DNA from: Planctomycetota bacterium
GTDB taxonomy: Bacteria > Planctomycetota > UBA8108 > UBA1146
Direction of reading: 5' to 3'
Assembly (NCBI GenBank): GCA_014240375.1
Contig: JAAZXB010000005.1
Span: 297-64,296, forward strand
Length of the DNA stretch: 64,000 nucleotides
Each line of letters starts with the position of its first letter. Position 1 is the stretch's first letter. The position numbers were made by a program, and so were the translations under genes. Positions 23,337 to 50,728 of the stretch are shown piece after piece. The notes below the pieces were generated by a model, which was not told the origin of the DNA, did no database searches, and saw only the letters and a program-made list of their open reading frames with translations.

Positions 23337-26300
23337 CTAGTAGGGAGAATCGATGCAGTCGAGTACGTCGTCGGTCGGGTCCAGACCGGCATCCGGGTAG
23401 GGTGCGGCGGGCGGAATCAGCGGCGTTCCATCCGCATGCAGGTAGTAGAAGATCATCAGCATGGCATCGCCGATGGTGACGATTCCGTTGTCATCGAAGT
23501 CTGCCGAATCGAAGCAAGTCGGCTCTGCTCCGTTGACGAAGAGCCAGTTGAGTACCCAGATTCCGTCGGCGATGTCACAGTTGGTATCACTGTTGGCATC
23601 CCCTCTCAGGAAGGTCTTGACGAATCCAGAGCAGGTGGTGGAGGTGGTGACTCCATCGGCATGCTCGGCCCAGATCCGGTAGGTGTAGGTGCCCTGGGCG
23701 GGGACCACATCGATGGTGCTTGTGGCGGAACCCGGAATCGAGGAGATCAGCACTCCGTTGCGCTCGATATGGATCGTCGAGTACGTCGCAGTGTTTTCCC
23801 AGTCGAGATGAATCGGCGCACCGAAGAAGGTGCAGGCCAGATTGATCGGCGCCGACAAGATGGTCACCGAGCAGGTGATGGGAGCGGTCTGGGATCCCGC
23901 CAGTGTCGCGATGACTTCGTAGGAGTAGGTTCCGGCTTCCAGTGGGATGTCGGTGTAACTCTCTTCGGTTCCATCGACGAAACCAACCAGCACGCCATCG
24001 CGAGAGATCTGGATCAGGTCGTAGGACTCACCGTTACTCCAGGAGATGGTGTTTCCGTCACCGATGGTGCTACAGGCGATCCCGGACATCGGTTGCGGCA
24101 CCACGATGGTGCAGCAGGTGGTGGCTCCGGTGCCATTACCGATATTGACCACCAGGCAGTACTGGTAGGTTCCAGGACCGGGGTTGTCGGTGGTACTGGT
24201 GTCGGAACCTGCCAGCGAGCCGATCGGGGCGCCGTTACGGGTCAAACTGATGAAGTCGCCTGCGGCGGGGAGGTCCCACGCCAGTTGCACGGTGGATCCA
24301 CCCGCAAGAGTACAACTGATGTTCTGTGGAGTGGAGGGGACCTCTTCCGAGCAGGATGCGGTGGAGGAGGTGCTCGCATCACCGAGGGTGGCGGTCAACT
24401 CGTAGCTGTGTGAACCATGAGGCTGGGCCGGATCGGTGAAGCTGTTGGTGGTTCCGGGCAGTAGTGCCAGCAACGCACCGTCTCGTGTCAACGACAGGGT
24501 GTCGTAATCATCGGTGTTGGTCCAGCTGAGAACCACATCACCAGAGGTGGCGACGCAGCCGAAGCCGGTCGGAGCGGAGATCACTCGAGCAGAACAGCAA
24601 GTCGCAGCACTGGTGCCGGTACCGATCAGGTTGACGACACAGTACTCATGGGTGCCGACCGGGGATCCCGAGTCATCGTAGGAGCTGGCACCACCTCCGA
24701 GGGTGGCGATCACAGTTCCATCACGAGAGATCTGAACGGTGGTGCCGGGGGCCGGCAGGGTCCACGAGAGAGAGACGGTCGACCCGAGAGCAGAGCAAGC
24801 GATGTCGATCGGGGTCGAAGGCACATCGACGGTGCAGTCGACGGTGTCGCTGATACTGGCGGCGCCGGCGTCGGCAGTCATGTCGTAACTATGTGCCCCG
24901 GCTCCCGCAGTAGCGTCGTGGTACGAGCTATCGCTTCCGGCGAGGATCGCCAGCGGTTGTCCATCTCGGTGGAGAGTGATGGTGTCGTAGACATCATTGT
25001 TGGTCCAGCTGATATCGACCTCGCCGCCATTGGCAGCACAGGCGAATCCGCTCGGGGCAGCAAGTACCCTGGCACTGCAACATGTGGTGGCACTGGTGCC
25101 GTTTCCGATCATGTTGACGATGCAATATTCGTTGGTGCCGACAGGCGCTCCCACATCTTCATGTGAGGTGGCATCTCCTGCGAGCATGGCGATGACGGTG
25201 CCATTTCGGCTCAGTGCGATGGTCTCGCCCGGGGCCGGTAGGGTCCAGGAGAGAGAAACGGTCGATCCCAGTGCCGAACACGCCATGTCGGTCGGTGTCG
25301 ATGGAACATCGACGGTGCAATCGACGGTGTCGCTGATGCTGGCGGCGCCGGCATCGGCGGTCATGTCGTAACTGTGAGCACCGGCTCCTGCAGTCGCATC
25401 GTGGTAGGAACTGTCGCTTCCCGGGAGGATGGCCAGCAACTGGCCGTCACGGTTGACGGTGATGGTGTCGTAGACATCGTTGTTGGTCCATGAGATGTCA
25501 ACTTCTCCGGAGACCGCTGCACAGGAGAAGTCGGTCGGGGCCGCGAGTACCCGTGCACTGCAACAGGTGGTGGCACTGGTGCCACTGCCGATCATGTTTA
25601 CGATGCAGTATTCGTGGGTACCCGCCGGTGCTCCCACATCCTCGTAGGAGGTGGAATCTCCCGCAAGCAACGCGATGACGGTGCCATTGCGACTCAACTC
25701 GATGGTTTCACCGGGTGCGGGCAAGCTCCAGGAGAGTGAAGCGGTGGAGCCGAGTGCCGAGCAGGCCATGTCGGTGGGGGTCGATGGTACATCGACGCTG
25801 CAATCGACGGTGGCACTGGTGCTGGAAGGACCGCCGTGGGCGGTCAGGTCGTAACTGTGAGCACCGTGCGCCGGCATCGCATCCTGGTAAGACGAATCGC
25901 CTCCCGAGAGGATCGCCAGCAGCTGGCCGTCACGATTGAGAGTGAAGGTGCTGTAACTGTCATTGTTGGTCCAGGAGATCTCGACATTGCCGGCGACCGA
26001 CGAGCAGCTGAAGTCGCTCGGATCCGCCAGCACATGAATGGTCGCGCAGATGGTGGTACTGGTGGCATCACCGATTTGCATCGTGATGCAGTACTGGTAG
26101 TCGCCCGGGGCCAGCCCGGTGTCGTCATGGGACTGGGTCGCTGCGGGTAATGACTCGATCGGCAGGCCATTTCTGGTCAGTTCAGCAGTGTCTCCGGGCC
26201 CGGTGTGACTCCACGACAATGAGGTGGTCGAGGCGAGTGCGGTGATTTGAAGATCGGTCGCCGGAGCGGGAACATCTTCGGAACAATCCACCGTCGAGGA

Positions 26301-29300
26301 ACTGTTGCCGTCCTTGGCACCACTGAGGGTGTAGGTGTGCGAACCGGGTTCGGTGGCGAGATCGGAGTAGGAGGTGACGGCTCCCGGTAACACCGCGATG
26401 ACGGCTCCATCTCGGAGCAGGGTCACGCTGTCGTATTCCTCGTTATTGGTCCAGCTCATGTCGACATCTCCGGCGCTGCAGAGGCACGAGAAGTTGGTCG
26501 GAGGAGCAGGAACCAGCAGGGTGCAGCACGCGGAGGCGCTGGTCTTGGGGCCGAAGCGATTCAACACGCAGTAGCTGTAGGTGGCGGGAGCCACACCAGC
26601 ATCGGTGTATCCAGCGCTGGAAGGATCGAGTTCGGCGATCAAAGTACCGTCGCGCCACACCTCGATGGTGGTGGAAGGCTGGGTGTTGACCCAGGTCAGA
26701 ACCGAATCCACTCCACCCGAGACTGAACAGGTCAGATCAGCAGGCGGGTAAGGAACGGTGACCTCACAGGCGATGGTTTTCGATTCGTGATCTCCGATGC
26801 GGCCACTGACCTCATAAAGATGAGGACCCGGTCCGGCGATGCTGTCGACATAACTGGTCGCGAGGCCATCGAGGTCTTCCAGGATGGTGCCTCCATCGCG
26901 CTTGAGGATCACATTGTCGTAGGCCTCTGCATTGGTCCAACTGATGGTGGCGATGGCAGAGTCCACCCCACAGATGAGATCCACCGGTGGAGCAGGAACG
27001 ATGGCCGGGGTACAGGTGTCGACGCTGTGGTTGTTACCGATCCGGGCGCGCAAGCAGTACTGGTAGGTACCCGGGTCGAGAGTCGGATCGATGTAGGAGG
27101 TCGCCGAGGCGGGAAGCGTCGCGATGACGATTCCGTCGCGGAAGATCCGGATCGAGGTGGCGTCCTCGGTGGGGGCCCAGGTGAGTAGCATGTGAGTGCC
27201 CTCGACCAGTCCGGTTCCGAGGGTGTTGATCGGTTCGGGAATGACCGTGGTGCAGTGGGTCGGATCACTTTCACTGGATCCCTTGAGACCTCGAAGGGTG
27301 TAGGAGTAATCTCCCGCGGCCAGCGGGGAGTCGATGTACTCGGTCGTGGTGCCGCTCAGGGTGGCGAGGACGGTCGATCCTCGCATCACCTCGACCTGGT
27401 CGTAGGCGGGCGCCGGGTTCTGCCAGTTGAGGCGAACCTGATCTCCCTCACCCTTGCAGGTCAACGCCTGTGGCTGGCGAAGGACGGTCAATCCACACGA
27501 TTGTGCAGCGGAGAGACCTTGACGACGTTGCGCAGTGATCGAGTAATTACGATTACCATAGGAAACATCTTCATCGGTGTAACTGGTGCTACTTCCCGAG
27601 ATGGTATCGATCAGGAAGCCGTCGCGGCGAATCGCGATGCTGTCGTAGGTTCCACCGTTGCTCCAGGAGAGGAACACCGATGAGCCGGAGGCGGAACAGT
27701 CGAGGGCCCCCAGCGGATCGGGCACGGTCAGGGTGCAGCAGCTTCTGCCGCTTTCTCCGGTGAACTTGACCCCGCGCACACAGACCGCGTAGTCGCCAGG
27801 TCCACCCTGGATCTGGGTGGTGTAACTCTGGCTAGTTCCAGGGATCTGATCGATTTCGGTCACGGTGGAGGAGTCGGTTCCCGGTCCGAACTCGATGATG
27901 ATGTAGTCATAGGCGTCGGTATTGAGCCAGCTGAAGGTGGCGATATCCACATCCGAGGAGCAGTTGATCTGCTCGACCGAGATGGGATCGACCAGTTCAC
28001 AGGTGGCACGAGCACTGACCGCTCGTCCATCATCGGCAACACCCTCTACCTCGTAGATGAAGCGTCCTGCAGAGATGACATCCGTGGTGGTGGTGGCATC
28101 TCCGGCGAGCGTCTGGATGTGCGCACCATCGCGATAGATGTTGATCAGGTCGAATCCATTTGGATTCGGCATCAGGTTCCAGTGGATGGTGGCGATGATC
28201 TGATTCTGGGCATCTGGAGCGGCACTGCAGGTGGCGGTGTAGGGCGGCATCAGCGCAGTGATACTGCAACTGGTCGAGAGGGTCGTGGTTCGATCTCCGC
28301 GCTCCACCACACTGTACTGGTGGATTCCAGAAGAGACATTGTTGTCGTGGTAGGAGGTACTCCCACCCGGCAGGGTGCTCTGCAGCACACCATCGCGGTA
28401 GAGGTCGATCAGGTCGTAGTTATCACTGTTACTCCAGGAGATGGAGATGTCGCGGTGCAGGGAAGTGCAGTCGAGAGAGGCGATCGGTACCATCACGCGG
28501 ATATCGCTACCGCGCTCGACGGTATTGATTGCACGACGCCGTCCACGGACCGAGTAGTGGTGATCTCCGTAGGCGACTCCAGAGTCGGTGTAGGCTTCGG
28601 TGTCCCCTGGCAAGGTCGCCAGCAATACTCCATCTCTGAACAGATCGACTTCGTCGTACACCGCACGGTTGTTCCAGGTCACATCGACGGTCTGTCCCAG
28701 ACAAACGGTCTGAACGTTGTTGGGAGAACGCAACTTGTGACCGAGGAATACGTAAACGCTTCCTGCCCCGTAGCGTCCGTAGGGCTTTGATCCCGCCGCA
28801 CCGATCAGCAGGTCGTTTCCTCTGTCATCATTGAAGTCGCCGGCGGCTCCGACCGAGATCCCCACTTGTTGACCTTCCTTGAGGCCGAGGTATCCGCGCC
28901 CTTCATGCTGGAACAGGTCCAGCAACTGGGATTCACCCAGCATCTGGCCACCGTTGACGCGGTGGGCCATTCCCTTTTCCACATCGAGCAGAATCGATCG
29001 GGAGATGCCAACGATGTGGTCATCGATTCCGTCACCGCTCACATCGAGCGTGGTGTGAACCGACTGCCCGTCTTCATCATTGTCGTAGAAACTCATGTAT
29101 CTGGTGATCCAAGGTGCAGGGATGGCGAGATTGATCTCGGCAGGGGGGCTGAACCCTCCACGAACCAGGTACGCCACAGTGGCAATCGTTTCAGGGTCGT
29201 GATCGTGAAGTGAGCGACTGATCAGTATTTCGGTGTCTCCATCCGCATCGGAATCGCCGGCACAGGAGATCGATTGGCCCAGTTCATGGTGTGCCTGGGG

Positions 29301-30284
29301 AACCCGAAGGGTGGTACTGGTCAGGCCACTGGCTGCGATGTCGGTCAGTGTGACTTCAGCCGGGGGAGTCGTTCCACCGTAGATGATCCAGGCGCGACCC
29401 GCATTGGCAGAGGAATCGTCGGAGTGGCGCATCGAAGCGATGGCGATGTCCGAGTGTCCGTCTCCATTGAAGTCTTCAAGGTCGGCGACGCAGGATCCCA
29501 CCTCCTGATGGGATCCACCGGAGCGGAAGATGGTCACATTGCTATGAGAATTCTTGAGGTCGATGGTGGCAGGAAGCGAGTTGCCCCCGCGAATCAGGAA
29601 GGCACTTCCACACACTTCGAGGGAGTCGTTGGAGTCCTCGGGGGCTCCGATGATGACATCGGAAAAACCGTCGCCATCGAAGTCGCGAGCTCCGGAGACG
29701 GAAGCGCCCAGATGCGAACCTTCGCGGGCACCGATGATCTCGACTCCGGAAGATCCAAGGTTGGATACGTCGATGATTCCCGGCGGATTGGCGGAGCCGT
29801 AGATGATGTACGCTCGTCCTGCTTCACCCTCGTCCGGATCGCTGCTGGAGGATCCCGGGGCACCGATGATGTAATCATCGATTCCATCGCCGTTGACGTC
29901 ACCGGCGTCCGAGACCGATGCTCCCAGCATCGATCCTTCCGCCGCACCCTGGATGACGATGACGCTGCCAGGGTGGGAGTAGAGCAGGTCCAGTTCGGTG
30001 GCAGGGGAACTGGAACCGAGGATGACGTACGCTTTTCCACCGGTGTTGTGGGAGCGGTTATCGGATCCAGGGGCTCCAGCGACGATGTCGGGAATCCCGT
30101 CCCCGTTCACATCTCCGGCACCCGAGGTCGAGGCACCGAGATGGTCCTCGGCGTGGGCTCCAACGATCCGGATCTGTGCGGTATCGATGAACACTTGATC
30201 GGAGGCCTGAGCGACCGTGGTGAAGAGCGAGAGGAAGGTGAATGCGATTACAACTACACCTAGGGTATATTTACGAATGCTCAT
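23337..30284 (-). CDS. Giant cell-surface protein: signal peptide, integrin-alpha-type FG-GAP repeats, ~20 Ig-like/fibronectin-like ~95-aa repeats, C-terminal dockerin
   Basis: 2315 aa; repeated GASVSGAGDVNGDGIPDIVAGAP FG-GAP units; repeated SWTNxxxYDxIxLxRDGxxLAxLxGxxxSYxD modules, several nearly identical at DNA level; C-terminus GDANSDTNCDIADGIWVLNWLF...DFDDNGIVTIGDAMLMIFYY. Confidence 0.9.
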   Translation of the reverse strand: MSIRKYTLGVVVIAFTFLSLFTTVAQASDQVFIDTAQIRIVGAHAEDHLGASTSGAGDVNGDGIPDIVAGAPGSDNRSHNTGGKAYVILGSSSPATELDLLYSHPGSVIVIQGAAEGSMLGASVSDAGDVNGDGIDDYIIGAPGSSSSDPDEGEAGRAYIIYGSANPPGIIDVSNLGSSGVEIIGAREGSHLGASVSGARDFDGDGFSDVIIGAPEDSNDSLEVCGSAFLIRGGNSLPATIDLKNSHSNVTIFRSGGSHQEVGSCVADLEDFNGDGHSDIAIASMRHSDDSSANAGRAWIIYGGTTPPAEVTLTDIAASGLTSTTLRVPQAHHELGQSISCAGDSDADGDTEILISRSLHDHDPETIATVAYLVRGGFSPPAEINLAIPAPWITRYMSFYDNDEDGQSVHTTLDVSGDGIDDHIVGISRSILLDVEKGMAHRVNGGQMLGESQLLDLFQHEGRGYLGLKEGQQVGISVGAAGDFNDDRGNDLLIGAAGSKPYGRYGAGSVYVFLGHKLRSPNNVQTVCLGQTVDVTWNNRAVYDEVDLFRDGVLLATLPGDTEAYTDSGVAYGDHHYSVRGRRRAINTVERGSDIRVMVPIASLDCTSLHRDISISWSNSDNYDLIDLYRDGVLQSTLPGGSTSYHDNNVSSGIHQYSVVERGDRTTTLSTSCSITALMPPYTATCSAAPDAQNQIIATIHWNLMPNPNGFDLINIYRDGAHIQTLAGDATTTTDVISAGRFIYEVEGVADDGRAVSARATCELVDPISVEQINCSSDVDIATFSWLNTDAYDYIIIEFGPGTDSSTVTEIDQIPGTSQSYTTQIQGGPGDYAVCVRGVKFTGESGRSCCTLTVPDPLGALDCSASGSSVFLSWSNGGTYDSIAIRRDGFLIDTISGSSTSYTDEDVSYGNRNYSITAQRRQGLSAAQSCGLTVLRQPQALTCKGEGDQVRLNWQNPAPAYDQVEVMRGSTVLATLSGTTTEYIDSPLAAGDYSYTLRGLKGSSESDPTHCTTVIPEPINTLGTGLVEGTHMLLTWAPTEDATSIRIFRDGIVIATLPASATSYIDPTLDPGTYQYCLRARIGNNHSVDTCTPAIVPAPPVDLICGVDSAIATISWTNAEAYDNVILKRDGGTILEDLDGLATSYVDSIAGPGPHLYEVSGRIGDHESKTIACEVTVPYPPADLTCSVSGGVDSVLTWVNTQPSTTIEVWRDGTLIAELDPSSAGYTDAGVAPATYSYCVLNRFGPKTSASACCTLLVPAPPTNFSCLCSAGDVDMSWTNNEEYDSVTLLRDGAVIAVLPGAVTSYSDLATEPGSHTYTLSGAKDGNSSSTVDCSEDVPAPATDLQITALASTTSLSWSHTGPGDTAELTRNGLPIESLPAATQSHDDTGLAPGDYQYCITMQIGDATSTTICATIHVLADPSDFSCSSVAGNVEISWTNNDSYSTFTLNRDGQLLAILSGGDSSYQDAMPAHGAHSYDLTAHGGPSSTSATVDCSVDVPSTPTDMACSALGSTASLSWSLPAPGETIELSRNGTVIALLAGDSTSYEDVGAPAGTHEYCIVNMIGSGTSATTCCSARVLAAPTDFSCAAVSGEVDISWTNNDVYDTITVNRDGQLLAILPGSDSSYHDATAGAGAHSYDMTADAGAASISDTVDCTVDVPSTPTDMACSALGSTVSLSWTLPAPGETIALSRNGTVIAMLAGDATSHEDVGAPVGTNEYCIVNMIGNGTSATTCCSARVLAAPSGFACAANGGEVDISWTNNDVYDTITLHRDGQPLAILAGSDSSYHDATAGAGAHSYDMTADAGAASISDTVDCTVDVPSTPIDIACSALGSTVSLSWTLPAPGTTVQISRDGTVIATLGGGASSYDDSGSPVGTHEYCVVNLIGTGTSAATCCSARVISAPTGFGCVATSGDVVLSWTNTDDYDTLSLTRDGALLALLPGTTNSFTDPAQPHGSHSYELTATLGDASTSSTASCSEEVPSTPQNISCTLAGGSTVQLAWDLPAAGDFISLTRNGAPIGSLAGSDTSTTDNPGPGTYQYCLVVNIGNGTGATTCCTIVVPQPMSGIACSTIGDGNTISWSNGESYDLIQISRDGVLVGFVDGTEESYTDIPLEAGTYSYEVIATLAGSQTAPITCSVTILSAPINLACTFFGAPIHLDWENTATYSTIHIERNGVLISSIPGSATSTIDVVPAQGTYTYRIWAEHADGVTTSTTCSGFVKTFLRGDANSDTNCDIADGIWVLNWLFVNGAEPTCFDSADFDDNGIVTIGDAMLMIFYYLHADGTPLIPPAAPYPDAGLDPTDDVLDCIDSPY

Positions 30285-41221: not shown

Positions 41222-41400
41222 TGAGCGACTCAATTGAGCGCTGACTCAAAAGGGGCATTGAACTTTTTTTGACGATCCGGCATAGTTTGAGAGTCCCGGT
41301 CTGCCGCACCGGGATCTGGTTACTGGAGTCCTCTCGGATGAGATCTGTGCTTCGCCGTAGGCTGACGGAATCCTACTTCTCGACCATCTGTACTGCTGGG

Positions 41401-41535
41401 GTCCGTAATTCTACGGTCCGCGATTCCACGCTTCCCAATTCGATACCCCGCAATTCGATACCCCGCAATTCGATACACCGCAATTCGATACACCGTGATT
41501 CCATGCACCGTGATTCCATGCACCGTGATTCAGAG
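41401..41535. repeat. Tandem repeat array, 15-nt period (~9 units: ccccgcaattcgata x~4, caccgtgattccatg x3)
   Basis: Read directly; sits at the extreme 5' end of, or just upstream of, the CHAT-TPR gene. Confidence 0.85.
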
Positions 41536-43764
41536 GTCTGCTCATCCGAGCCACGATGCACTCGAGTCGGCCAGTGGCTCCCGCTCGATTCGACCGCCAC
41601 CGCAGCGATAGGGCTGCCCCTTCTCATCCTGTGCCTCGCCCTGTTTTTCTTTCCTTGCGGGAGTGCGGCGCAGATCAACGATCTGATCCTGCTCGAGGGG
41701 AGACTGTCGACCAGTCGTCCACTGATGGATACCGATGTACTGGCGATCGCCCTGCCCCCTTCCGCCGTGTGGCGGCACGTCGAGGTGCTACTGGTCAGTG
41801 ATGGCATCGAGGTGTCTCTCACCACTGCCGATGTCGATGGGCAAGAGCGACACCTGAGGTTTTCCGATCAGGAACTTTTCGGACCCGATCCGGGTCGTTT
41901 CTCCGGAGGAGAACTGCTGGTCCGCATCACCGAATCAGGGCAGCAAGCGATTCCTCATCGGATGGCTTCCGCTGTCGATCCCGCGCCTTGGTATCCCCAT
42001 GGCGCCACTCCCCAGGATGTTCTGGAGCGTGCAGCGAGGAAGTTGAAGGAGGGGCTGACGAAGAAGGCCGCCGAGGACTTGCTGACGCTTCGAGATACCG
42101 CGCTGGTGCCGGCACTCTCATCGGAAAGGATGAGATTGAATGCATCGGTGCAGCAAGCCTATTCGGATGTCAGTTCGATCCACGGTCGCACCGCAGAACA
42201 GTTACTCGAGTCTGCAGTTCTTCGCGCACCCGCAGGATCATCGACCAGAGAAAAAGTGCTGATCGATCAAGCGGCTCAGAACATTCGTAAAGCGACGTTT
42301 TCATCCGATCGAGAGACCTGGAGGAGCGAACTGACCGAGGCGTTGTCACGGGCGCGGTTGGCTCTGTCATCGGCACGTGAACTCGACCATCGAGACAATG
42401 CGGCGGCAGCATTGCTGGAGATTGCTGCTGCGGCTTCATGGCGCGGTTGGGCACTGGAAACTCGTGCAGCGACCGAAGCTGCGCTGGATCTGGCGGGCGA
42501 TCCCGATACCCGCTGGAGGTGTGCACTGGCATTGGCTCGCTCTCACATGGTAACGGGGAAACTGTCCGAGGCGGTCACCGAGGCTCGTGAGGCCCTCTCC
42601 ATCGTCGAACAGATCCGTGGGAGTCGCCACGACGATGCGGCAGCGATGGGTCTGCGTCGACAGCCAGCGATCTTGCTGGCAGACATCGAATCTCGCAGAG
42701 GCGATGCGCTCTCTTCCTTGATCGCCGCCGAGAAGATCCGGGTTCGAAGCAGCGGCGCCACGCCGATCGATCGAGCGGCACTGGAAAAACTGGCCCGCGA
42801 TGCTCAGGGGCTGGCCACGGTAGTCGTGGCGCTCGACGCAGGAACGGTGCTGTTGGTCTGGTCCACCGTCGGCGGAGAGTGGCAGCACCGGCGGATCGAT
42901 CAGCGCCGAGGAGAGGCGATCGAGCGTGGGATGGCACTGCATCACTCTCGAGGAGCGAATGTCGAGGCAGCCGACTGGCTCTCGAAGCGGCTCTTTCCCG
43001 CGGCCCTGAATCCATGCGATCGTTTGCTGCTGGCCCCGATCGGTGGATTGCGAAGAATTCCCTGGGGCATCCTCACCATCGATGGGGAAGCACTGGTCGA
43101 TCGCTGCAGCTGGAGTCTGTTGCCGGGACTCGGCAGCGGGCCGCGAGCCCTCGAACCGTTACCGAGGGAGGGGTGGTGGACGGTGGTAGATCCGTGGGTC
43201 CCCGATCGATCTCGATTGCCTGGATCCAGGGCGGAAGGGGAGCGGATCCAGGATCGTTTTCCGGCGGTCGAGTTGCGCTCAGGAGAAGCGGCGACGGTGG
43301 CCGCGGTGGAGCAAGCGGCGACGGTCGCAAAGGTGCTCCACATCGCCTGTCATGGAGACTTCCAGCCCTACGACCCAGGCGGGTCGAATCTGCGACTGAG
43401 CCCTGCCGGCGAGTCCGATGGAGTGCTCACTGCCGATCAGTTGTCGCGGATGGAACTGATCGATTGTCGGCTGCTGGCGCTGACCGGATGTGAGACCGCT
43501 TTGGGTTCGGCGAGCGGCGCCGACGACCTGGCGGGATTCCCGCGGGCGGCGCTCGAAGCGGGGTGTCAGGCGATTTTGGGGACGCTTTGGCCGGTCGAGG
43601 ACGCCTCGGCAGGTAGATTTCTTGGATCGCTGGTGGCAGCCACGGATGGCCAGGTAGAGCCCGCAGAGGTGCTCAGGCGGGCATGTAGGGCCAGAAGAGG
43701 AGATCCGAGGGATCGCGATCCTGGCGCCTGGAGTGGCTGGGTTCTGGTTGAGAATGGCTGGTAA
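41518..43764 (+). CDS. TPR + CHAT (caspase-HetF-like peptidase) domain protein, secreted/periplasmic
   Basis: Hydrophobic signal (LPLLILCLALFFFPCGSAAQ); C-terminal VLHIACHGDF...LLALTGCETALG are the CHAT His/Cys catalytic dyad regions. Start ambiguous (ATG 41503/41518 inside the repeat array; ORF opens at 41269). Confidence 0.7.
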   Translation: MHRDSEVCSSEPRCTRVGQWLPLDSTATAAIGLPLLILCLALFFFPCGSAAQINDLILLEGRLSTSRPLMDTDVLAIALPPSAVWRHVEVLLVSDGIEVSLTTADVDGQERHLRFSDQELFGPDPGRFSGGELLVRITESGQQAIPHRMASAVDPAPWYPHGATPQDVLERAARKLKEGLTKKAAEDLLTLRDTALVPALSSERMRLNASVQQAYSDVSSIHGRTAEQLLESAVLRAPAGSSTREKVLIDQAAQNIRKATFSSDRETWRSELTEALSRARLALSSARELDHRDNAAAALLEIAAAASWRGWALETRAATEAALDLAGDPDTRWRCALALARSHMVTGKLSEAVTEAREALSIVEQIRGSRHDDAAAMGLRRQPAILLADIESRRGDALSSLIAAEKIRVRSSGATPIDRAALEKLARDAQGLATVVVALDAGTVLLVWSTVGGEWQHRRIDQRRGEAIERGMALHHSRGANVEAADWLSKRLFPAALNPCDRLLLAPIGGLRRIPWGILTIDGEALVDRCSWSLLPGLGSGPRALEPLPREGWWTVVDPWVPDRSRLPGSRAEGERIQDRFPAVELRSGEAATVAAVEQAATVAKVLHIACHGDFQPYDPGGSNLRLSPAGESDGVLTADQLSRMELIDCRLLALTGCETALGSASGADDLAGFPRAALEAGCQAILGTLWPVEDASAGRFLGSLVAATDGQVEPAEVLRRACRARRGDPRDRDPGAWSGWVLVENGW

Positions 43765-43813
43765 TGAGCCGATAATCTTCGATTGCCCTCAGGGCGACTC
43801 CGCGCCACTACCG

Positions 43814-46453
43814 ATGGGTGGTGGAGACGCAGTGGAACTGGCGAGATCGGACATTGGCGGGCGGGGAATCTGCGTCGGGAACGTAAATCGGGGAACCGAG
43901 CGGGGGCTTCAGACGCTAAGCCACCTCAAGAGTGCGAAAGAGGTTTGGATCGATGAGTTGGAGAATGGGAAAGGTGATGCAATCCTGAAGCATGTAAGGG
44001 GCCACTGGCCCCTCTGGCCACTGTTGTTTCTATTCGTGATGTCGCCAGGATTCGGCGTGAACTCGTCGCATCCTGGGTCGGGTACGCTGATCGCTCAGGT
44101 GCCCAATCTGACCTTCGTCGAGTTGTTTCATGTGAATGCAGAGGAAGTGCTGCAATTCCTCCGTGGAGTTCCGGGACTTACCGCTCAAGTCGAAAATGGT
44201 GAGGTGGCGATGGTTCCCAATCGCTCTCAGTCGTTGCTCGTCACGGCGGATCCACCGACTACCGAGGCGTTGATCCGGATCATCCGGGATTTCGAGAACC
44301 TGGAGGTCAGGGATCGCCTGATCGAAAAATCGATCACCATCCGTTATGCCGGAATTCAACTGGTACTCGAGACGCTGGCGGCGGGCAAGATCTGCCAGGT
44401 GTACCATCGAACCGAGGAAGTGAAGAACGACTCGACCAAGCAAGGAAATCGGACCATCACACGGACCTACAAGAAGGCGGTCTATGCCCGCTATGAGGCC
44501 GCCAGCGAGACGGTCCTGCCTTCGTGGAGTTTGCCGGAGTACCCCTACATTCTCGAGATTCCTCACGTCGATCCGGTCGAATTGCCGCCGGTGAATCTCG
44601 GCAGTGGAATCGACGAAGCGGCACTCTCCCTCACCTTCAAGGATTCGCCCTCGACAGAAGCGCGCAATCGATTGCTGGTCGTCGGAACCGAGAAGGACAT
44701 CGCTAGAATCCAGAAATTCATCGATCAGATAGATATCCCTGCACGGCAGATCATGATCGAGGTTCAGATCATCGAACTGGAAGCCGATTCCCTGACAGAT
44801 CTGGGAATCGACATGCTCGCCTACGAAAAACGTCACGCGGTGATCGACTTCGCCTCACCGCTCCCTGGCGACCCGATGCCCCAGGTCGGTGAAAACTTCA
44901 ATCCGATCGAGCAAGCGGGGTTGTCATTCCTCTTTGATGACACCACTGAACGCCTTTCCGCCCAGTTCCTTGCCGGAGTCCATGCACTGGTGCGCAAGGG
45001 AGATGCCATCATCAAGGCACGCCCGAAGTTGTACGCACTCGACGATCGTCAGAGCCAGCTTCACCTGGGAGAAAAAATTCCGACCTTTGTCTCCACCGAT
45101 GTCGTGCGAAATTCGAACGGCAGCAATTTCGTCGAGAATATCAACAAGGTGGGGACCGAGCACATCGGGACCACCCTGGTGGTGAAGCCGAGGATCAGCG
45201 GTCCCGACGAGAATGAAGTCTCGATGCTGATCGATATCACCGTCAATAACTTGCAGGGACGACAGCGTGTTTTCGAGGAGGACCTGCTCGGAATTCCAGA
45301 GATTGCCATCCGGAATTTCCGGGGACAGGCCAGGGTCAAGAATCACAGGCCACTGATCCTCGGAGGCCTGATCAAGGAGAGTGAGTTTGAGTCCCGCAAC
45401 AAGATGCCACTGATCGGAGACATCCCGTTTCTCGGTGACCTCCTGGGTCGCAGGAACTCGCAACAGATTCGCTCCGAGATCATCATCGTGTTGACTCCTC
45501 ACATCCTCAGCGAGGATGGCATCGATCCGATTTCGACTCCCAAGGAGAGTAGCCACTTCGACACCTTCAACAGCGTGCTCTTCAACGACCGATACATCCT
45601 CAAGGGACGTGACCTGGTCGGACTGGATCCGATCAGCAGGACGCCGGTGGAGGGGTTCTCCAGCGATGAGGTGATCGACCTGACGCTGTTGAACATCGTC
45701 AAGAAGCGTGAACTGGTCAGTCGGTTGAAGATCTTTGAAGACTACCTTCCAGAATCGGCTGGAACGCTCAGTGCATTCAAGAGGAAGCATCCCGAGAAGT
45801 CGATTCGCACCTGGAGTGTCGAGGAGCGGCAACTGTTCTTCCAGGCGGCTGCAATCCTGGTCGAAAACATCAAGAGCCTCAATCCAGGGCTCGACTATGA
45901 CGACGTGGTCTCTCCGCGGCGTGAAATCGTGGTGCCGACCAGTCCGTACCATGTCAGCCTCTCCTACGACAAGTTGAAGACCTTTTATGACAAGGGAGAC
46001 CTGGTGGTGTTTCGTGGCGAGACCAACCTGTCGGAGGGTACGATTCGTAATCTGGAACAGATCTACACTCGCTCCTTCGAGGAGTTTGCCTCCTTCCTCG
46101 AGTTGATCGGTCGTACCGACCAGCAACATGGTGAGTTCCGTGGCATTCTCGAACAGCAAAGAAGCCTCCTCTTCCCCTCTGCGGAGCCGGCACAGGAACT
46201 GACTTATGGCGATCTGTTCAGGGATCTTGACCGACATGGTCTCGATTTCATCAGTGTTGCGACCTTCCTCGCTAACCGTCTCCAACAGGCAGTTTCCGAC
46301 GGTGAAGTTCCGCTGGGTGTGCTCGAGGATGACCTGGAATCATTCAGGAACAGAACGGTCACCCTCGATGAACTGGGAGATCGCCTGCAGACCCTCGACG
46401 AGCGCTGGGATTTCCTCAACAATTCACCGTTACGACCAGTCAGGGGGCTGTGA
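43814..46453 (+). CDS. Secretin-family outer-membrane channel protein (T2SS/T4P GspD/PilQ-like) with ~300-aa C-terminal extension
   Basis: Central ...RPLILGGLIKESEFESRNKMPLIGDIPFLGDLLGRR...IIIVLTPHIL is the secretin signature. It is followed by ~300 further residues with no recognisable motif. Overlaps the CHAT gene end; start uncertain (ORF opens at 43733). Confidence 0.7.
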   Translation: MGGGDAVELARSDIGGRGICVGNVNRGTERGLQTLSHLKSAKEVWIDELENGKGDAILKHVRGHWPLWPLLFLFVMSPGFGVNSSHPGSGTLIAQVPNLTFVELFHVNAEEVLQFLRGVPGLTAQVENGEVAMVPNRSQSLLVTADPPTTEALIRIIRDFENLEVRDRLIEKSITIRYAGIQLVLETLAAGKICQVYHRTEEVKNDSTKQGNRTITRTYKKAVYARYEAASETVLPSWSLPEYPYILEIPHVDPVELPPVNLGSGIDEAALSLTFKDSPSTEARNRLLVVGTEKDIARIQKFIDQIDIPARQIMIEVQIIELEADSLTDLGIDMLAYEKRHAVIDFASPLPGDPMPQVGENFNPIEQAGLSFLFDDTTERLSAQFLAGVHALVRKGDAIIKARPKLYALDDRQSQLHLGEKIPTFVSTDVVRNSNGSNFVENINKVGTEHIGTTLVVKPRISGPDENEVSMLIDITVNNLQGRQRVFEEDLLGIPEIAIRNFRGQARVKNHRPLILGGLIKESEFESRNKMPLIGDIPFLGDLLGRRNSQQIRSEIIIVLTPHILSEDGIDPISTPKESSHFDTFNSVLFNDRYILKGRDLVGLDPISRTPVEGFSSDEVIDLTLLNIVKKRELVSRLKIFEDYLPESAGTLSAFKRKHPEKSIRTWSVEERQLFFQAAAILVENIKSLNPGLDYDDVVSPRREIVVPTSPYHVSLSYDKLKTFYDKGDLVVFRGETNLSEGTIRNLEQIYTRSFEEFASFLELIGRTDQQHGEFRGILEQQRSLLFPSAEPAQELTYGDLFRDLDRHGLDFISVATFLANRLQQAVSDGEVPLGVLEDDLESFRNRTVTLDELGDRLQTLDERWDFLNNSPLRPVRGL

Positions 46454-47274
46454 TGAGGTCGCTATCCTTCGGGGATTCACCCCTGGTCAAGCAGCTGCTT
46501 GGCACTGTAATGGCGACCTTGACCGTCAGTTTGATGGTCCTTGGCTCCGGCTGCAAACCGATCGACAAGAGGAGTGCAGAGGCCGATGTCTTGAAGGATA
46601 TTCGCGACACGACGGTGATCCCTGACCTCGGATCTTACGACGAAGCGATCCGCAAGAAGTCGGTGAGTCGCATCTTGATGAGCCTGCAGAAGGCGCCCGA
46701 TATCACCCGCAATCTGTTGCTGGCGACCATCGATGATTCGATGGTCAGCGCCCGCACCAAGAGAGTGATCTGTACACTGCTGGCGGACCTGGGGGATTTG
46801 CGCGCGATGGCCCCCTTGACCCGGATGCTGGCGGAGGGATCTCAAGCTGAAGATGACCTGCTCGAGACGGCACTGCTCGAGTTCGGGGAACGTGCAGTGT
46901 CGGGAGTCTCGACGGTGCTGGCTGAAGGGGGACCGATTGCACGGCGCAACGCCGCGGGAATCTTGCTCGGCATCGGTGGCTCCAGTGCTCACGACGCACT
47001 GCGCATGAGACTACGGATCGAGAAGGACCCTGAAGTGCGATTTCTCTGTGTCTGCGGGTTGGTCGAGGATCGTCGAACAACCTCGCTGGCACTCCTGGGA
47101 GAGGCTCTCGACGACATCGATGAAGAGGTCAGAAGAGCGGCATGGGGTGGGTTGTCTCGTCGAGCCCGTCCTCCCGGGGCGATCCTCTTCAACCCTTCTG
47201 GACTTCCTGAGGTGAGAATTCGTCAGGCGCTACAGGTGCGAAAATGGCTCGAAGTCGGGTCAGTGCCACTCTAG
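46450..47274 (+). CDS. HEAT/PBS-lyase-repeat lipoprotein
   Basis: Lipobox LGSGC; repeated ...ALGxLGDxRAxxPL... HEAT-like units; ATGA overlap with the secretin gene. Confidence 0.7.
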   Translation: MMRSLSFGDSPLVKQLLGTVMATLTVSLMVLGSGCKPIDKRSAEADVLKDIRDTTVIPDLGSYDEAIRKKSVSRILMSLQKAPDITRNLLLATIDDSMVSARTKRVICTLLADLGDLRAMAPLTRMLAEGSQAEDDLLETALLEFGERAVSGVSTVLAEGGPIARRNAAGILLGIGGSSAHDALRMRLRIEKDPEVRFLCVCGLVEDRRTTSLALLGEALDDIDEEVRRAAWGGLSRRARPPGAILFNPSGLPEVRIRQALQVRKWLEVGSVPL

Positions 47275-47330
47275 TGCGGGGGTAGTGCCATTCTGGTGCG
47301 GGGCAGTTCCATCGATGGATTCAGTCACGA

Positions 47331-47365
47331 GAAGGGCCGGCAGGGGTATCCCCTGCCGGCCCTTC
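47331..47365. terminator. Bidirectional rho-independent terminator
   Basis: GAAGGGCCGGCAGGGG-tatc-CCCTGCCGGCCCTTC: perfect 16-bp stem between convergent genes. Confidence 0.8.
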
Positions 47366-47390
47366 TCAGAACAGATCGAGCGCCTGACCT

Positions 47391-48422
47391 TCAGACTTGA
47401 GACTCTTGCTCTTCGATGAACTCCTGCCAGAAATCTTCCGGCATGTCGAGCGCAATCTTGAGAGCTCCGTTGGAACCTGCGTACTGCGGCTCCTCGACCG
47501 ACTTCACTTTTCCTCCACCGTACTCGACGAGGGCTTCCTCGAAGGCTCGGCAGAGTCCGGTGATCTGGCTGCCGCCGCCGCCCAGCAGGATGTGATTGCG
47601 CATCTTCTGCTGGAATTCCGGGTCGTAGGTGGCGATCAGATCTTGCAGCGCTTCGACGGTGGGGGCGACGATACCGGAGCACGCCTCGCTCACCTCGGCA
47701 GTGATGTCAAACTCGGTCGGCTTTCCCTGGACCGGGAAGGTCGCCACGACCGGATCCATGTGGGTTCCGACACAAGCGTGATCTTCCTTGATCTCGCGCA
47801 CCATGTTGGAGGAAAACTGTGCCTCCGGGTGGTTTTCGGTCAGCAACTCGGTCAATCGGGTGTCGATGGCATCTCCACCGAAGTGGTGAGTTCGTTGATC
47901 CTCAGCCTTCGGCATCGTGGCATGGACCCGGCACAGATCGACGGTTCCAGCACCGATATCGACGACCAGGGTATCGGAGAGGAAATCGAGGCCGTAGGCC
48001 ACCGAGAACGGTTCCGAGCAGACCACGATGCTATCCATGAATTCGGAAGCGGCAGCGAGGATATGAGCCTTGGAGTCGACGCTGGCCTCGGCGGGGGCTC
48101 CGATCACACCGTAGATGGTGCTCCCGGTGGGGATCTCCGCCTGTTCGATGACGTACTCGATCAGGTCTCTGACGGCGTGCCGGGATTTCTCATCATCCTG
48201 GATCACTCCCTTGTCGAGGGGGCGAACCAGATCGACCGCCATCCGGTTCTGCACCGCTTCTTCACCGAACACCTTGTCACGACCACCGAGGTGCTTGCGA
48301 CTGACATGATCCTGGGCATATCCGACGTAAGACCAGACGGTGGTCCGGACCCCTGTCGAAGTGGTGATGGAAGTGCGGCTGGTGCCGAGGTCCATTCCAA
48401 TGTAAACGATATCGCTCATCAC
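47391..48422 (-). CDS. MamK-like actin-family ATPase
   Basis: IGMDLGTSRTSI (phosphate-1), VRPLDKGVI, VCSEPFSVAYGLD...VVDIGAGTVDLC (phosphate-2), LLGGGGSQITGL (adenosine). Block-by-block resemblance to magnetosome MamK rather than MreB/FtsA/ParM, from recalled MamK sequence. Confidence 0.8.
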   Translation of the reverse strand: MMSDIVYIGMDLGTSRTSITTSTGVRTTVWSYVGYAQDHVSRKHLGGRDKVFGEEAVQNRMAVDLVRPLDKGVIQDDEKSRHAVRDLIEYVIEQAEIPTGSTIYGVIGAPAEASVDSKAHILAAASEFMDSIVVCSEPFSVAYGLDFLSDTLVVDIGAGTVDLCRVHATMPKAEDQRTHHFGGDAIDTRLTELLTENHPEAQFSSNMVREIKEDHACVGTHMDPVVATFPVQGKPTEFDITAEVSEACSGIVAPTVEALQDLIATYDPEFQQKMRNHILLGGGGSQITGLCRAFEEALVEYGGGKVKSVEEPQYAGSNGALKIALDMPEDFWQEFIEEQESQV

Positions 48423-48453
48423 TGATTCCTCTCCCGATGTGAATCGTTGCCGA

Positions 48454-49605
48454 TCAGGCGTGATCCTTCTCGGTCTTCTGTGAGTTTGTTCTTGTCGCGG
48501 AGATTTTGCTCCTCAATTCCTTGTTCTCTTGCACCAGTTCCAGCAGCAGTGATTGGCGCACCCCATGATTGGAGTCGTCGCCGCTACTGGCCTTGACCCG
48601 GTCGCCTCCCGCCCCCTTGAATCCCTGAGTCCGGTCTTTCGACTCGGCGCGGCGGGCGTTCTCGCGCGCGTGGTCCCGATCTTTTCTGGCATCGTCCAGG
48701 CTATGCGCGAGACGGTGTATCTTTCTTTCGAGCAACTGGATGTTCTCGTTGCGAGCACCCTCTTCTTGAATACGGGTTCGCTCCCGCTCCGAGTCGAGAG
48801 ATCGTTCCATCGCTTCGCGGAGCTTCTCCTCGAGCGGCGCCGCAACTGTTCCCGATTCGACCGCCGCATCGATCACCGAGCCCAGTTTCGATTCGAGTTC
48901 GATCATCGCCCCTTCGGAAAGGGTAAACTGATCTCGCTCGACTTCGCGATTTTTTTCGCGCCCCAGCAAGTTCTGGGCTCGATCCAGTCTGCTGGATAGG
49001 CCCTGCACATGCGACTGGAGATCTGCCTTCTCGCTCTCGAACTCGGCGAGTTTCTCGCGGAAGCCCTTCTCGGACTCCTTGAGCAGGCGCTGGATCTCAT
49101 TCTCATCGTGGGAGAGCCCACTCTCTCGCACCACATCCTCGACCGCATCCTGGATCAAATCCTTGATGGCGGACAGATTCAGCACGCGGACGCTATCGCG
49201 CTGCGCTGCGATGGCTGCAGTTCTCACCAGCCTCGAGCGGGAACGGAGGGCCGATTCGAGATCGGAGTGCCCTTCACCGGAGGGGGCCCCCGAGAAGAGG
49301 CGATCGAGGGCTTCGAGTTCACGTGGATGCGCAGGTTTCCAGCGCAGCAGCACTCCGGCAGAGGTGCGGGTGACCACCTCGGCGTGAATCAACTCGGCTT
49401 GGCCATCGGGGCGCTCGACGATCAGTTCGAACCGATCTCCGATACGGAGCCGGATGGTGGTTTCCAGTAAGACTTCTCGGCCGTCGATCCGTGCCACCGG
49501 GAGACGAAGGATGCCCGCTTCCAGTTCGGCTACGACGCTCCAGCGTCCAGAACCGGCAGGAACTTTCGAGGTGGTCTGTTCCGGCAAGAGGTATCCGATC
49601 TTCAC
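48454..49605 (-). CDS. Long coiled-coil protein with N-terminal beta-rich (possibly PilZ-like) domain; partner of MamK-like actin
   Basis: 383 aa; residues ~110-380 are highly charged heptad-like (ERERTRIQEEGARNENIQLLERKIHRLAHS...); ends 31 nt upstream of the actin gene on the same strand. Confidence 0.65.
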   Translation of the reverse strand: MKIGYLLPEQTTSKVPAGSGRWSVVAELEAGILRLPVARIDGREVLLETTIRLRIGDRFELIVERPDGQAELIHAEVVTRTSAGVLLRWKPAHPRELEALDRLFSGAPSGEGHSDLESALRSRSRLVRTAAIAAQRDSVRVLNLSAIKDLIQDAVEDVVRESGLSHDENEIQRLLKESEKGFREKLAEFESEKADLQSHVQGLSSRLDRAQNLLGREKNREVERDQFTLSEGAMIELESKLGSVIDAAVESGTVAAPLEEKLREAMERSLDSERERTRIQEEGARNENIQLLERKIHRLAHSLDDARKDRDHARENARRAESKDRTQGFKGAGGDRVKASSGDDSNHGVRQSLLLELVQENKELRSKISATRTNSQKTEKDHA

Positions 49606-49819
49606 CTGGCGGGGATCAGTGGGGTCGATTCATCCAGGTCTCATCATCGAGCCATCGAGAATCGGGCAACAGAGAAGGCTATCGGGAAGCGTGGTTTCCT
49701 GCAAGGTGAGGGGGCGTGAAACGTTGCTCAGCGCCTGGATTCCGGGATTTGTTGCCGGAACCGGATCGCAGTCTGGAGCGTCTACCTGTGGAGAACCCGA
49801 CCGGTTGAAAATCCCCTGG

Positions 49820-50728
49820 ATGAAGCCGATCGGGTCTGCCGAAGCGATCCATGTCGGTCTGATGGACATCGGTACCTCAACATGGGATGCTGTCGAAGTT
49901 GGAGAACCGATGCCACCTAGTACCATGCTCCTGCTGATTCTCGCCTCGGTCCACGGGCTCCCCGTCGACGTGATCCCCGGCACCGAACCCTCTCGTGCTG
50001 GATCGATCCCCCTGGGCAAGGTGTTCTATTCGCCTCAAAGCGGCGAAGTACAGGTCGATGGAGTGCTCAATCTCAATCGTGGTTTTGTCGAGTATGTCGC
50101 CTGCACTGCGGGAGTGAAGCCGCACGAGACGCTGGTCAGCCTCGATTGTGATCCGGCGGATCTACAGGGGGTACTGTTGCTGCTGGGTCTGACCAATTCG
50201 CGACGTCCCGAATCGGAGTACGATCTGGGCCCCCTCAGTGGAGGGGATCGAGTGATCTTGTCGCTCAGATTTCAGGTGTTAGATGGAGAGGGGCGAAAGC
50301 GTCTCCGGACCATCCGGGTCGAGAATTGCCTGATCAATGCTCCGATGGAGAGATCGATGGCGCGCTGTGGATTCAGTTTCACCGGATCGGGATTCCAGTG
50401 GCTCGATCCGCCCCCAGGGGCCCCTGAAGGAGCGGCGCCAAAAGAGCATTTCATGGCCCGGGTCACGGGAGAACTGGTCGCCCTCAGCCACCGGCCGTGG
50501 GCGATTCTCGACAATCCGCTGGCGTTGCCCTATCCAGACGGCGATTATTTTGCATATTCGGATGTTCTTCCCCAGCATCGAAGGGATGATCCACCTGCGG
50601 TCACATTGTTGCTACGCCGCGCAGTGGCGGGAGATGTGGACCCGAAAGCGATCCGGATGGAACTGCCTCCTCGGCCGTTGAACCCGGACACCGAGGCACC
50701 AGTTCGTGAGGGGGAGGGAGGACGATGA
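49820..50728 (+). CDS. Hypothetical protein
   Basis: Internal ATG start chosen (MKPIGSAE...); the upstream part of ORF 49454 overlaps the start of the divergent gene. No recognisable motif. ATGA overlap with the next gene. Confidence 0.45.
   Translation: MKPIGSAEAIHVGLMDIGTSTWDAVEVGEPMPPSTMLLLILASVHGLPVDVIPGTEPSRAGSIPLGKVFYSPQSGEVQVDGVLNLNRGFVEYVACTAGVKPHETLVSLDCDPADLQGVLLLLGLTNSRRPESEYDLGPLSGGDRVILSLRFQVLDGEGRKRLRTIRVENCLINAPMERSMARCGFSFTGSGFQWLDPPPGAPEGAAPKEHFMARVTGELVALSHRPWAILDNPLALPYPDGDYFAYSDVLPQHRRDDPPAVTLLLRRAVAGDVDPKAIRMELPPRPLNPDTEAPVREGEGGR

Follow-up and report, generated by a model that had tools for sequence, protein, structure and literature searches.

A MamK-family actin gene and a conserved, modular partner gene form a probable two-gene operon in an uncultured marine planctomycete

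What does an actin of the magnetosome kind do in a planctomycete, and with which protein does it work? Planctomycetota lack FtsZ (PMC11032199), and their cell organisation and division are still an open question. Bacterial actins are understood via their partners, as in ParM-ParR, MreB-RodZ and MamK with MamJ or the Mad proteins. The question is raised by two minus-strand open reading frames (ORFs), of 383 and 343 aa, that lie 31 nt apart in a 64-kb stretch of DNA from an uncultured marine planctomycete (hereafter, the window). An original prediction, made from the letters of the DNA, had taken the shorter ORF for a MamK-like actin gene and the longer one, upstream, for the gene of a mostly coiled-coil protein; coordinates, lengths and gap were confirmed. 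The explanation that we favour, and consider reasonably probable, is that the pair is a native chromosomal two-gene operon encoding a MamK-type actin filament protein and a cognate modular adaptor or regulator, hereafter referred to as the partner. Such an operon is a candidate player in planctomycetal cell organisation or division. Its features are as follows (window coordinates).

48454..49605, minus strand: partner gene, 383 aa, gene 1 of the operon, from the ORF list; its product has a PilZ-fold N-terminal domain, a short linker and a helical module of ~260 aa
47391..48422, minus strand: gene of the MamK-family actin-like ATPase, 343 aa from the GTG at 48422, gene 2 of the operon
48423..48453, minus strand: intergenic spacer of 31 nt with a ribosome-binding site inside
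49291..49545, minus strand: PilZ-fold beta-domain of the partner (aa 21-105), canonical cyclic di-GMP (c-di-GMP)-binding motifs absent
48490..49272, minus strand: conserved helical module of the partner (aa ~112-372), with three conserved motifs
48496..48774, minus strand: minimal unit of the partner module (aa 278-370), common to all actin-adjacent partner variants
47329..47367, no strand: perfect 18-bp inverted repeat with a 3-nt loop and without a T-run, 23 nt past the actin stop, between convergent genes

The product of the second gene was compared with models of the bacterial actin families. In NCBIfam, the MamK model gave 386.2 bits (E 1e-115), the BeeR model 217 and the MreB models at most 63, with negligible scores for all others. 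Pfam returned generic actin-superfamily matches only, the best of them MreB_Mbl (64.5 bits); ParM_N (E 0.002), Alp7A_C (E 0.004) and FtsA stayed under threshold. Among solved structures three MamK entries came out best, at 238 bits over residues 6-335 with one single-residue gap, followed by BeeR at 133 bits and MreB at 32. Identity in a joint alignment was 38.5% to MamK, 33.8% to BeeR and 24.0% to MreB; for comparison, genuine MamKs from Desulfobacterota and Nitrospirota share 35-38% of their residues with that of Magnetospirillum (PMC10653835 Table S1B). Six residues precede the phosphate-1 motif. The motifs DLGTS (phosphate-1), SEPF (with the catalytic glutamate E137, equivalent to MamK E143), DIGAGT (phosphate-2) and GGGS (adenosine) are all present and invariant in the family, and all three motifs quoted in the original prediction (IGMDLGTSRT, VVDIGAGTVDLC and LLGGGGSQITGL) were found in the translation. 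The earlier assignment to MamK and not to MreB, FtsA or ParM is upheld. As judged from its sequence, the protein is an intact actin-fold ATPase of the MamK family, with a similarity to MamK far above chance and far above the generic actin fold to which the match might have been due.

Within that family its position is a borderline one. The NCBIfam MamK model, NF040964, has a cutoff of 400 bits, and the window actin falls 14 bits below it. Ten members of its family score 366-405 bits on the same model, compared with 542 for genuine MamK and 224 for BeeR. Close relatives straddle the cutoff, with P0015 at 400.9 bits, P0033 at 405.1 and the others at 366-391. On the BeeR model, NF053558, the window actin falls well short of membership (217 bits for a cutoff of 530). 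We regard the family as a sister subfamily at the edge of the NCBIfam MamK model. In a neighbour-joining tree it forms one tight clade (pairwise identity at least 58%) beside MamK, with BeeR outside and MreB as the outgroup. Since MamK, BeeR and MreB were each represented by a single reference, the tree fits both a sister and a nested position relative to the magnetosome MamKs.

A database search with the actin yielded 5,326 proteins at E<=1e-20, in which relatives of MamK and BeeR are probably counted too. The top 120 matches are all at least 64% identical, and all organism-named ones among them come from metagenome-assembled genomes (MAGs) of Planctomycetota. A scan of species-representative genomes gave 80 actin loci, all in MAGs and mostly labelled Planctomycetota; a few carry the labels Verrucomicrobia, Brocadiaceae or Bacillota, which are unconfirmed. 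The nearest loci, at 98% identity, lie in the marine MAGs DUAN01 and JABHOG01. The closest loci and most of the others thus being planctomycetal, the genome is of the planctomycete type that had been surmised. All sampled carriers of the actin family are uncultured.

The gene upstream of the actin was followed through the related loci. All ORFs of the fetched loci were translated and searched with an iterated hidden Markov model (HMM). The set held 79 non-redundant actin loci, of which 70 had at least 1.5 kb of upstream DNA. A locus was counted as positive when a MamK-family actin gene was immediately preceded, in the same orientation, by a partner-family gene (helical module, HMM E<=1e-5). 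This was so in 67 of the 70 loci (96%), over actin identities of 58-98%. The gap between the two genes had a median of 79 nt (range -8 to 253). The window locus, with its 31-nt gap and a partner that matches the family HMM at E 1e-124, is an ordinary case. The remaining neighbours are shared only between close relatives, with a CHAT-secretin-HEAT cluster and a DUF1015 gene recurring there, and are wholly different in distant loci. Looked up in reverse from distant partner representatives, the actin was the next gene downstream in all three informative cases. The pairing suggested by the original prediction is therefore not accidental.

The two genes also appear to have travelled together. The partner is the faster-evolving of the two by a factor of about two (median pairwise identity 35%, against 70% for the actin), and the identities of the two correlate (Spearman 0.80). 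Three MAGs carry two modules each: L028 and L030 in JBFWWP01, L027 and L042 in JAQBGV01, and L031 and L064 in JBJXGE01. In the two of these MAGs that were analysed, JBFWWP01 and JAQBGV01, the paralogous actins are 69-72% identical and the partners 36-38%. We take these paired modules for ancient paralogues rather than recent duplicates, with contamination of the bins as a possible alternative source. For three of the four paralogous copies the nearest relatives of the partner were found at the same loci as those of the actin. Since partner relatives track actin loci in these copies and the distances correlate, the module has been inherited and duplicated as a unit.

AlphaFold models of the partner have six strands at residues 23-89 and a helix at 94-104, followed by helices of up to 71 residues. 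The protein has a net negative charge, and 38% of residues 111-383 are charged, so a small beta-rich domain does stand ahead of a charged helical region, as had been described. The coiled coil proposed for that region is supported for part of it, not all: heptad periodicity is significant in helix 168-219 (p=0.0005), but weak or absent in the other helices. The N-terminal domain (aa 21-105) has the PilZ beta-barrel fold, in a degenerate form. Pfam PilZ (PF07238, cutoff 22.5 bits) did not match the window partner at E<=0.1. No member of the family reached its threshold, the best score being 17.1 bits (L087). The RxxxR motif is absent throughout the family, whose proteins begin no more than ~20 residues ahead of strand 1. 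At the position of the second c-di-GMP motif, (D/N)xSxxG, the window clade has RIDGREV and many distant members have EI[SG]xxGA. The partner had no match in NCBIfam or in a profile search against PDB sequences, and no recognisable DNA-binding domain was found in it in the Pfam, NCBIfam and PDB-sequence searches. In the source records the partner is mostly called a hypothetical protein.

Word-seeded searches with the partner returned only 36-37 proteins, nearly all of them close relatives, even when started from a diverse alignment; coiled-coil words were probably saturating. The family was instead collected with a profile run exhaustively against 1.84 billion representative proteins and with the iterated HMM over the fetched loci. 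The former gave 219 clusters (defined at 50% identity) at E<=0.001 and 129 at E<=1e-30, with the match centred on a module of ~260 residues (window residues ~112-372). Invariant or near-invariant positions fall in three motifs, SVRVLNLSAIKDLIQDAV, NIQLLERKIHRLAHSLDDAR..RD and LLLELVQENKELR. Members are typically 370-650 aa long and reach 891 aa, with long linkers and C-terminal tails that match no Pfam domain.

What stands in front of the module varies, the linker included. A PilZ-like domain is present in 96 of 150 partner-family representatives, the remainder being mostly fragments, and in the loci searched this N-terminal domain was seen only in actin-adjacent partner-family ORFs. Some variants have an FHA-type N-terminus instead (P0276 at the Pfam cutoff; P0200 and P0252 with matches to the FHA-like YscD domain). 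Two FHA-type partners were looked up, and both were followed by an actin gene downstream. The partner at locus L041 (2496-5945 of CP070682.1, a 2.16-Mb MAG chromosome) has 1,149 aa and consists of two successive REC domains, a ~500-residue extra coiled coil and the conserved module; just ahead of the module its translation contains a masked run of 34 X (N in the DNA). In one clade (L053, L055, L057-L061 and L067) a gene lies on either side of the actin gene, and each of the two retains just the module's C-terminal part. The MAGs of this clade are labelled Verrucomicrobia or Akkermansia, labels that look automatic and may be wrong. The upstream protein of this clade has a hydrophobic 23-residue segment and a proline-rich linker (PDPVRQ x3), and the downstream one is arginine-rich. 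By eye the upstream protein had resembled LysM/FimV-like proteins; no Pfam match was obtained.

The variants of this clade and the short protein at L074 retain only HMM positions ~237/280/287-378. The C-terminal ~90 residues (278-370 of the window partner) are the sole part common to every partner variant and are probably the part associated with actin. Of the four N-terminal alternatives, PilZ, FHA and REC belong to the classical signalling-input domains, and the remaining one is a membrane anchor. Because the N-terminus holds signalling-input or anchor domains, we regard the partner as an adaptor or regulator rather than a passive structural protein. Their interchangeability suggests how the filament is recruited or regulated, in what would probably be a dedicated actin system under the control of signals.

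The sequence around the two genes is consistent with an operon. A strong ribosome-binding site, GGGAGAGG, lies at 48428-48435, 5 nt ahead of the GTG at 48422 listed as the actin start and 8 nt ahead of the ATG (48419) that directly follows it. Since homologues mostly have 342 aa and begin with MS(D/E), the true start is probably the ATG, giving 342 aa. A terminator scan found none in the spacer between the two genes. The inverted repeat at 47329-47367 was not called by that scan because it has no T-run; it probably marks the end of the operon, as a bidirectional terminator or an RNA-stabilising hairpin. A sigma-70 promoter scan of the locus gave no match, a result that is uninformative for this phylum. 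The plus-strand ORF at 47397-48425, which mirrors the actin gene, is a shadow ORF without support. G+C around the gene pair is 0.59-0.60, the same as in the remainder of the window.

Elsewhere the window encodes RF2, SHMT, two class I tRNA synthetases, IspG, an amidase, a helicase, glycosyltransferases and two tRNAs, in addition to CHAT, secretin and HEAT-repeat genes; this is a context of chromosomal housekeeping or ordinary envelope genes. Of the 40 sizeable ORFs scanned in the window none is a mam or mad gene, and neither is any called gene in the related loci that were examined. No iterons were detected upstream of, flanking or within the operon, tblastn of the actin against 72,556 plasmids gave no match, and defence-system models gave none either. 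A check for mam genes or a plasmid-partition context, envisaged with the original prediction, thus revealed neither within the window.

Some neighbouring features were recorded in passing. The CHAT-domain protein (831 aa), the secretin (906 aa, with ~300 residues outside the secretin domain) and the HEAT-repeat protein are encoded at 41269-47274 in a cluster convergent to the actin operon, which adjoins the operon in close relatives (L001, L004) and not in distant ones; this cluster might conceivably be linked in function to the PilZ-fold partner. A 22-nt tandem repeat, GGGTCAGTGCCACTCTAGTGCG, present in 2.1-2.7 copies at 47256-47312, reaches across the stop of the HEAT-repeat gene into the convergent intergenic region 3' of the actin gene and occurs nowhere else in the window. 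On the other side, the plus-strand ORF at 49454-50728, which has no Pfam match, shares 152 nt, as listed, with the 5' end of the partner gene. Because the divergent gene at this position has only 275 aa in close relatives, its true start is probably further downstream. The largest gene of the window is an ORF of 2,315 aa with FG-GAP repeats (23337-30284, minus strand), and adjacent minus-strand ORFs at 3539-5083 and 5090-6358 encode proteins that each have a cytochrome c554-type multihaem domain.

Several other explanations of the locus have to be weighed against a native actin-partner operon. We consider it extremely improbable that the actin is a genuine magnetosome MamK of a magnetotactic host whose magnetosome gene cluster lies beyond the window. 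Its best HMM and structure matches are indeed to MamK, and magnetotactic Planctomycetota MAGs are on record (10.1101/682252); however, 64 kb of housekeeping context, with no mam or mad gene in the 40 sizeable ORFs that were scanned, and a score well under the 542 bits of genuine MamK speak against it, as do thousands of relatives in many different MAGs whose neighbours differ each time. Moreover, proteins of non-magnetotactic Planctomycetota are the field's own deep-branching MamK clade (PMC10653835 Table S1A). A type II (ParMRC/Alp-like) DNA segregation system, with the upstream protein as centromere-binding adaptor, would have the classic layout of a two-gene operon of actin plus adaptor, and the sub-threshold Pfam matches to ParM_N and Alp7A_C point the same way. 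We nevertheless judge it highly improbable: those matches, at E 0.002-0.004, stand against 1e-115 for MamK, there are no relatives in the 72,556 plasmids searched and no iterons, the negatively charged partner lacks a recognisable DNA-binding domain, and the G+C and gene context are those of the surrounding chromosome. The affiliation with ParM/StbA plasmid-partition actins that the original prediction had named as an alternative did not emerge. Mere neighbourhood of two genes without a shared function likewise appears very unlikely. Two loci do have the actin without the partner, and shared function rests on comparative inference, yet the 96% adjacency, with gene order and strand preserved, persists while every other neighbour changes, it survives swaps of the N-terminal domain and duplication of the module, and in the loci searched the PilZ-like domain was confined to partner-family ORFs next to actin.

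Two further possibilities concern the function of one or the other protein. Most database annotations would make the actin a functional MreB, a scaffold of cell-wall elongation. MreB_Mbl is the best Pfam match, many sources use the name, and a role in cell shape may exist; we hold the assignment as a whole to be distinctly unlikely. NCBIfam MreB models give 31-63 bits against cutoffs of 293-515 (PRK13927, 62.7 against 293; TIGR00904, 49.5 against 366), identity to MreB is 24%, and in no locus examined is mreC, mreD, rodA or pbp2 adjacent. The conserved neighbour is instead the unrelated PilZ-fold/helical protein. Family members are named "rod shape-determining protein" (MreB) in many public records and "MamK family actin-like protein" in others, a mixture that arises because the family straddles the 400-bit MamK cutoff; the label "rod shape-determining protein MreB", inherited from the generic Pfam domain, looks like a systematic and misleading mis-annotation. 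As to the partner, it could be a c-di-GMP receptor that couples filament assembly to c-di-GMP levels. This is unlikely, though its PilZ fold is clear, many distant members carry EI[SG]xxGA at the D/NxSxxG position and one member has a weak match to Pfam PilZ. The loss of RxxxR throughout the family, the RIDGREV of the window clade and the failure of every member to reach the PilZ threshold argue otherwise, and the FHA or REC domains swapped in elsewhere indicate a generic input or adaptor position rather than one for c-di-GMP specifically.

We return to the operon of a MamK-type filament protein and its cognate partner. Since all nucleotide-binding and catalytic motifs are present, the actin would most likely polymerise with ATP into filaments of the MamK type, which are double-stranded and non-staggered. 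The partner may dimerise through its helices and bind the filament through its conserved C-terminal unit, and its N-terminal domain would then attach the filament to a site or a cargo in the cell, or gate assembly upon a signal. Because the c-di-GMP motifs are lost, the PilZ-fold domain of the window partner more likely binds a protein. Division, polarity and the positioning of membranes or cargo are candidate roles; we do not take the system for a magnetosome apparatus, a plasmid-partition system or an MreB elongasome. Some observations weigh against the proposed arrangement. Clear heptad periodicity is confined to one helix of the partner, and the formation of a dimeric coiled coil is an assumption. 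A looser functional link could likewise account for the conserved operon and its joint inheritance, and contact between actin and partner is something we infer from these comparative patterns. At L073 and L083 the actin gene has no adjacent partner gene, for which reason some lineages may do without the partner or have its gene at another place. At both loci the ORF that follows the actin gene was considered as a diverged partner; a relaxed HMM search gave no match, and by inspection it looks like a sugar transferase.

A broader version can be offered only as a tentative and rather doubtful proposal. The module may lie at the core of a "signal-gated" actin cytoskeleton, previously unrecognised and widespread among Planctomycetota and their relatives. 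In it, one conserved MamK-type filament would be served by adaptors that join inputs of different kinds, namely PilZ-like, FHA/phospho-threonine, REC/two-component and membrane anchor, to a common filament-binding helical unit. It would control a basic cell process, for instance polarity, the positioning of endomembranes, or a form of division or budding that is independent of FtsZ. It is also possible that the MamK-plus-adaptor system was recruited from a non-magnetosome ancestor of this kind. With the probable actin-binding part narrowed to ~90 residues, a MamK relative from outside magnetosomes becomes experimentally approachable.

The actin can be set beside several known systems. With MamK of Magnetospirillum (PDB 5LJW/5JYG) it shares the actin-fold ATPase of the same length, an alignment over the full length and all catalytic and nucleotide motifs; it differs in belonging to a separate tight clade, in having no magnetosome genes nearby and in its different, unrelated conserved partner. 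MamK homologues in non-magnetotactic bacteria had been noted earlier (10.1101/682252). Saltatorellin, the MamK-like actin of Saltatorellota (Saltatorellus ferox Poly30), forms filaments in E. coli and M. gryphiswaldense (Wiegand et al. 2019 preprint, 10.1101/817700). It has been used as the planctomycetal "MamK" (PMC10653835 Table S1A), and the ancestral reconstruction in that work took two proteins of non-magnetotactic Planctomycetota as deep MamK representatives. Like the window actin, saltatorellin is a MamK-like actin of non-magnetotactic, Planctomycetota-related bacteria, and the two are possibly related; the passages of 10.1101/817700 that were covered mention no partner protein for it. 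BeeR of Verrucomicrobiota, which assembles into a three-stranded tube (PMC11929497; PDB 8R2N), is likewise a MamK-related actin of non-magnetotactic bacteria of the Planctomycetes-Verrucomicrobia-Chlamydiae (PVC) group (PMC11929497). In contrast to BeeR, the window actin, only 33.8% identical to it, lacks the disordered N-terminal extension of ~35 residues (PMC11929497).

MamJ of Magnetospirillum is an acidic repetitive protein and is not known to have a PilZ or coiled-coil character. In magnetotactic bacteria MamK teams with adaptors and coiled-coil proteins, among them Mad20, Mad23, Mad25 and Mad26 of Desulfovibrio magneticus RS-1 (PMC12748827). What the window pair is proposed to share with these systems is an actin filament with a dedicated adaptor or coiled-coil protein linking it to cargo; it differs in that the genes of the Mam and Mad proteins belong to magnetosome clusters and in that no homology of the partner to any named family was detected. 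For the latter reason the likeness to MamK-MamJ that had been pointed out stands as a functional analogy, as does that to the Mad network, and not as a statement of descent. An ancestral cognate MamJ-like adaptor, since lost, has been postulated (PMC10653835). The ParM-ParR-parC and Alp7A-Alp7R systems share the compact operon of a bacterial actin and an adaptor, but the window operon has no DNA-binding adaptor domain, no centromere repeat and no plasmid relative and lies in a housekeeping context. From PilZ adaptors (PF07238; Alg44, YcgR and the non-binding PilZ proteins of type IV pilus systems) the partner is set apart by the lack of RxxxR, D/NxSxxG and a Pfam match, and its PilZ-fold domain is fused to a helical module unseen in characterised PilZ proteins. 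In full-text searches, which did not extend to subscription-only papers, no description of such a PilZ-fold/helical partner or of the conserved pairing was found. The actin is thus of a known kind; what appears to be new is the partner family with its modular architecture, together with the conserved module of two genes. For saltatorellin and BeeR, as non-magnetotactic MamK-like actins, filaments have been shown and function and interactor are unassigned; one such family now has a conserved, co-inherited partner.

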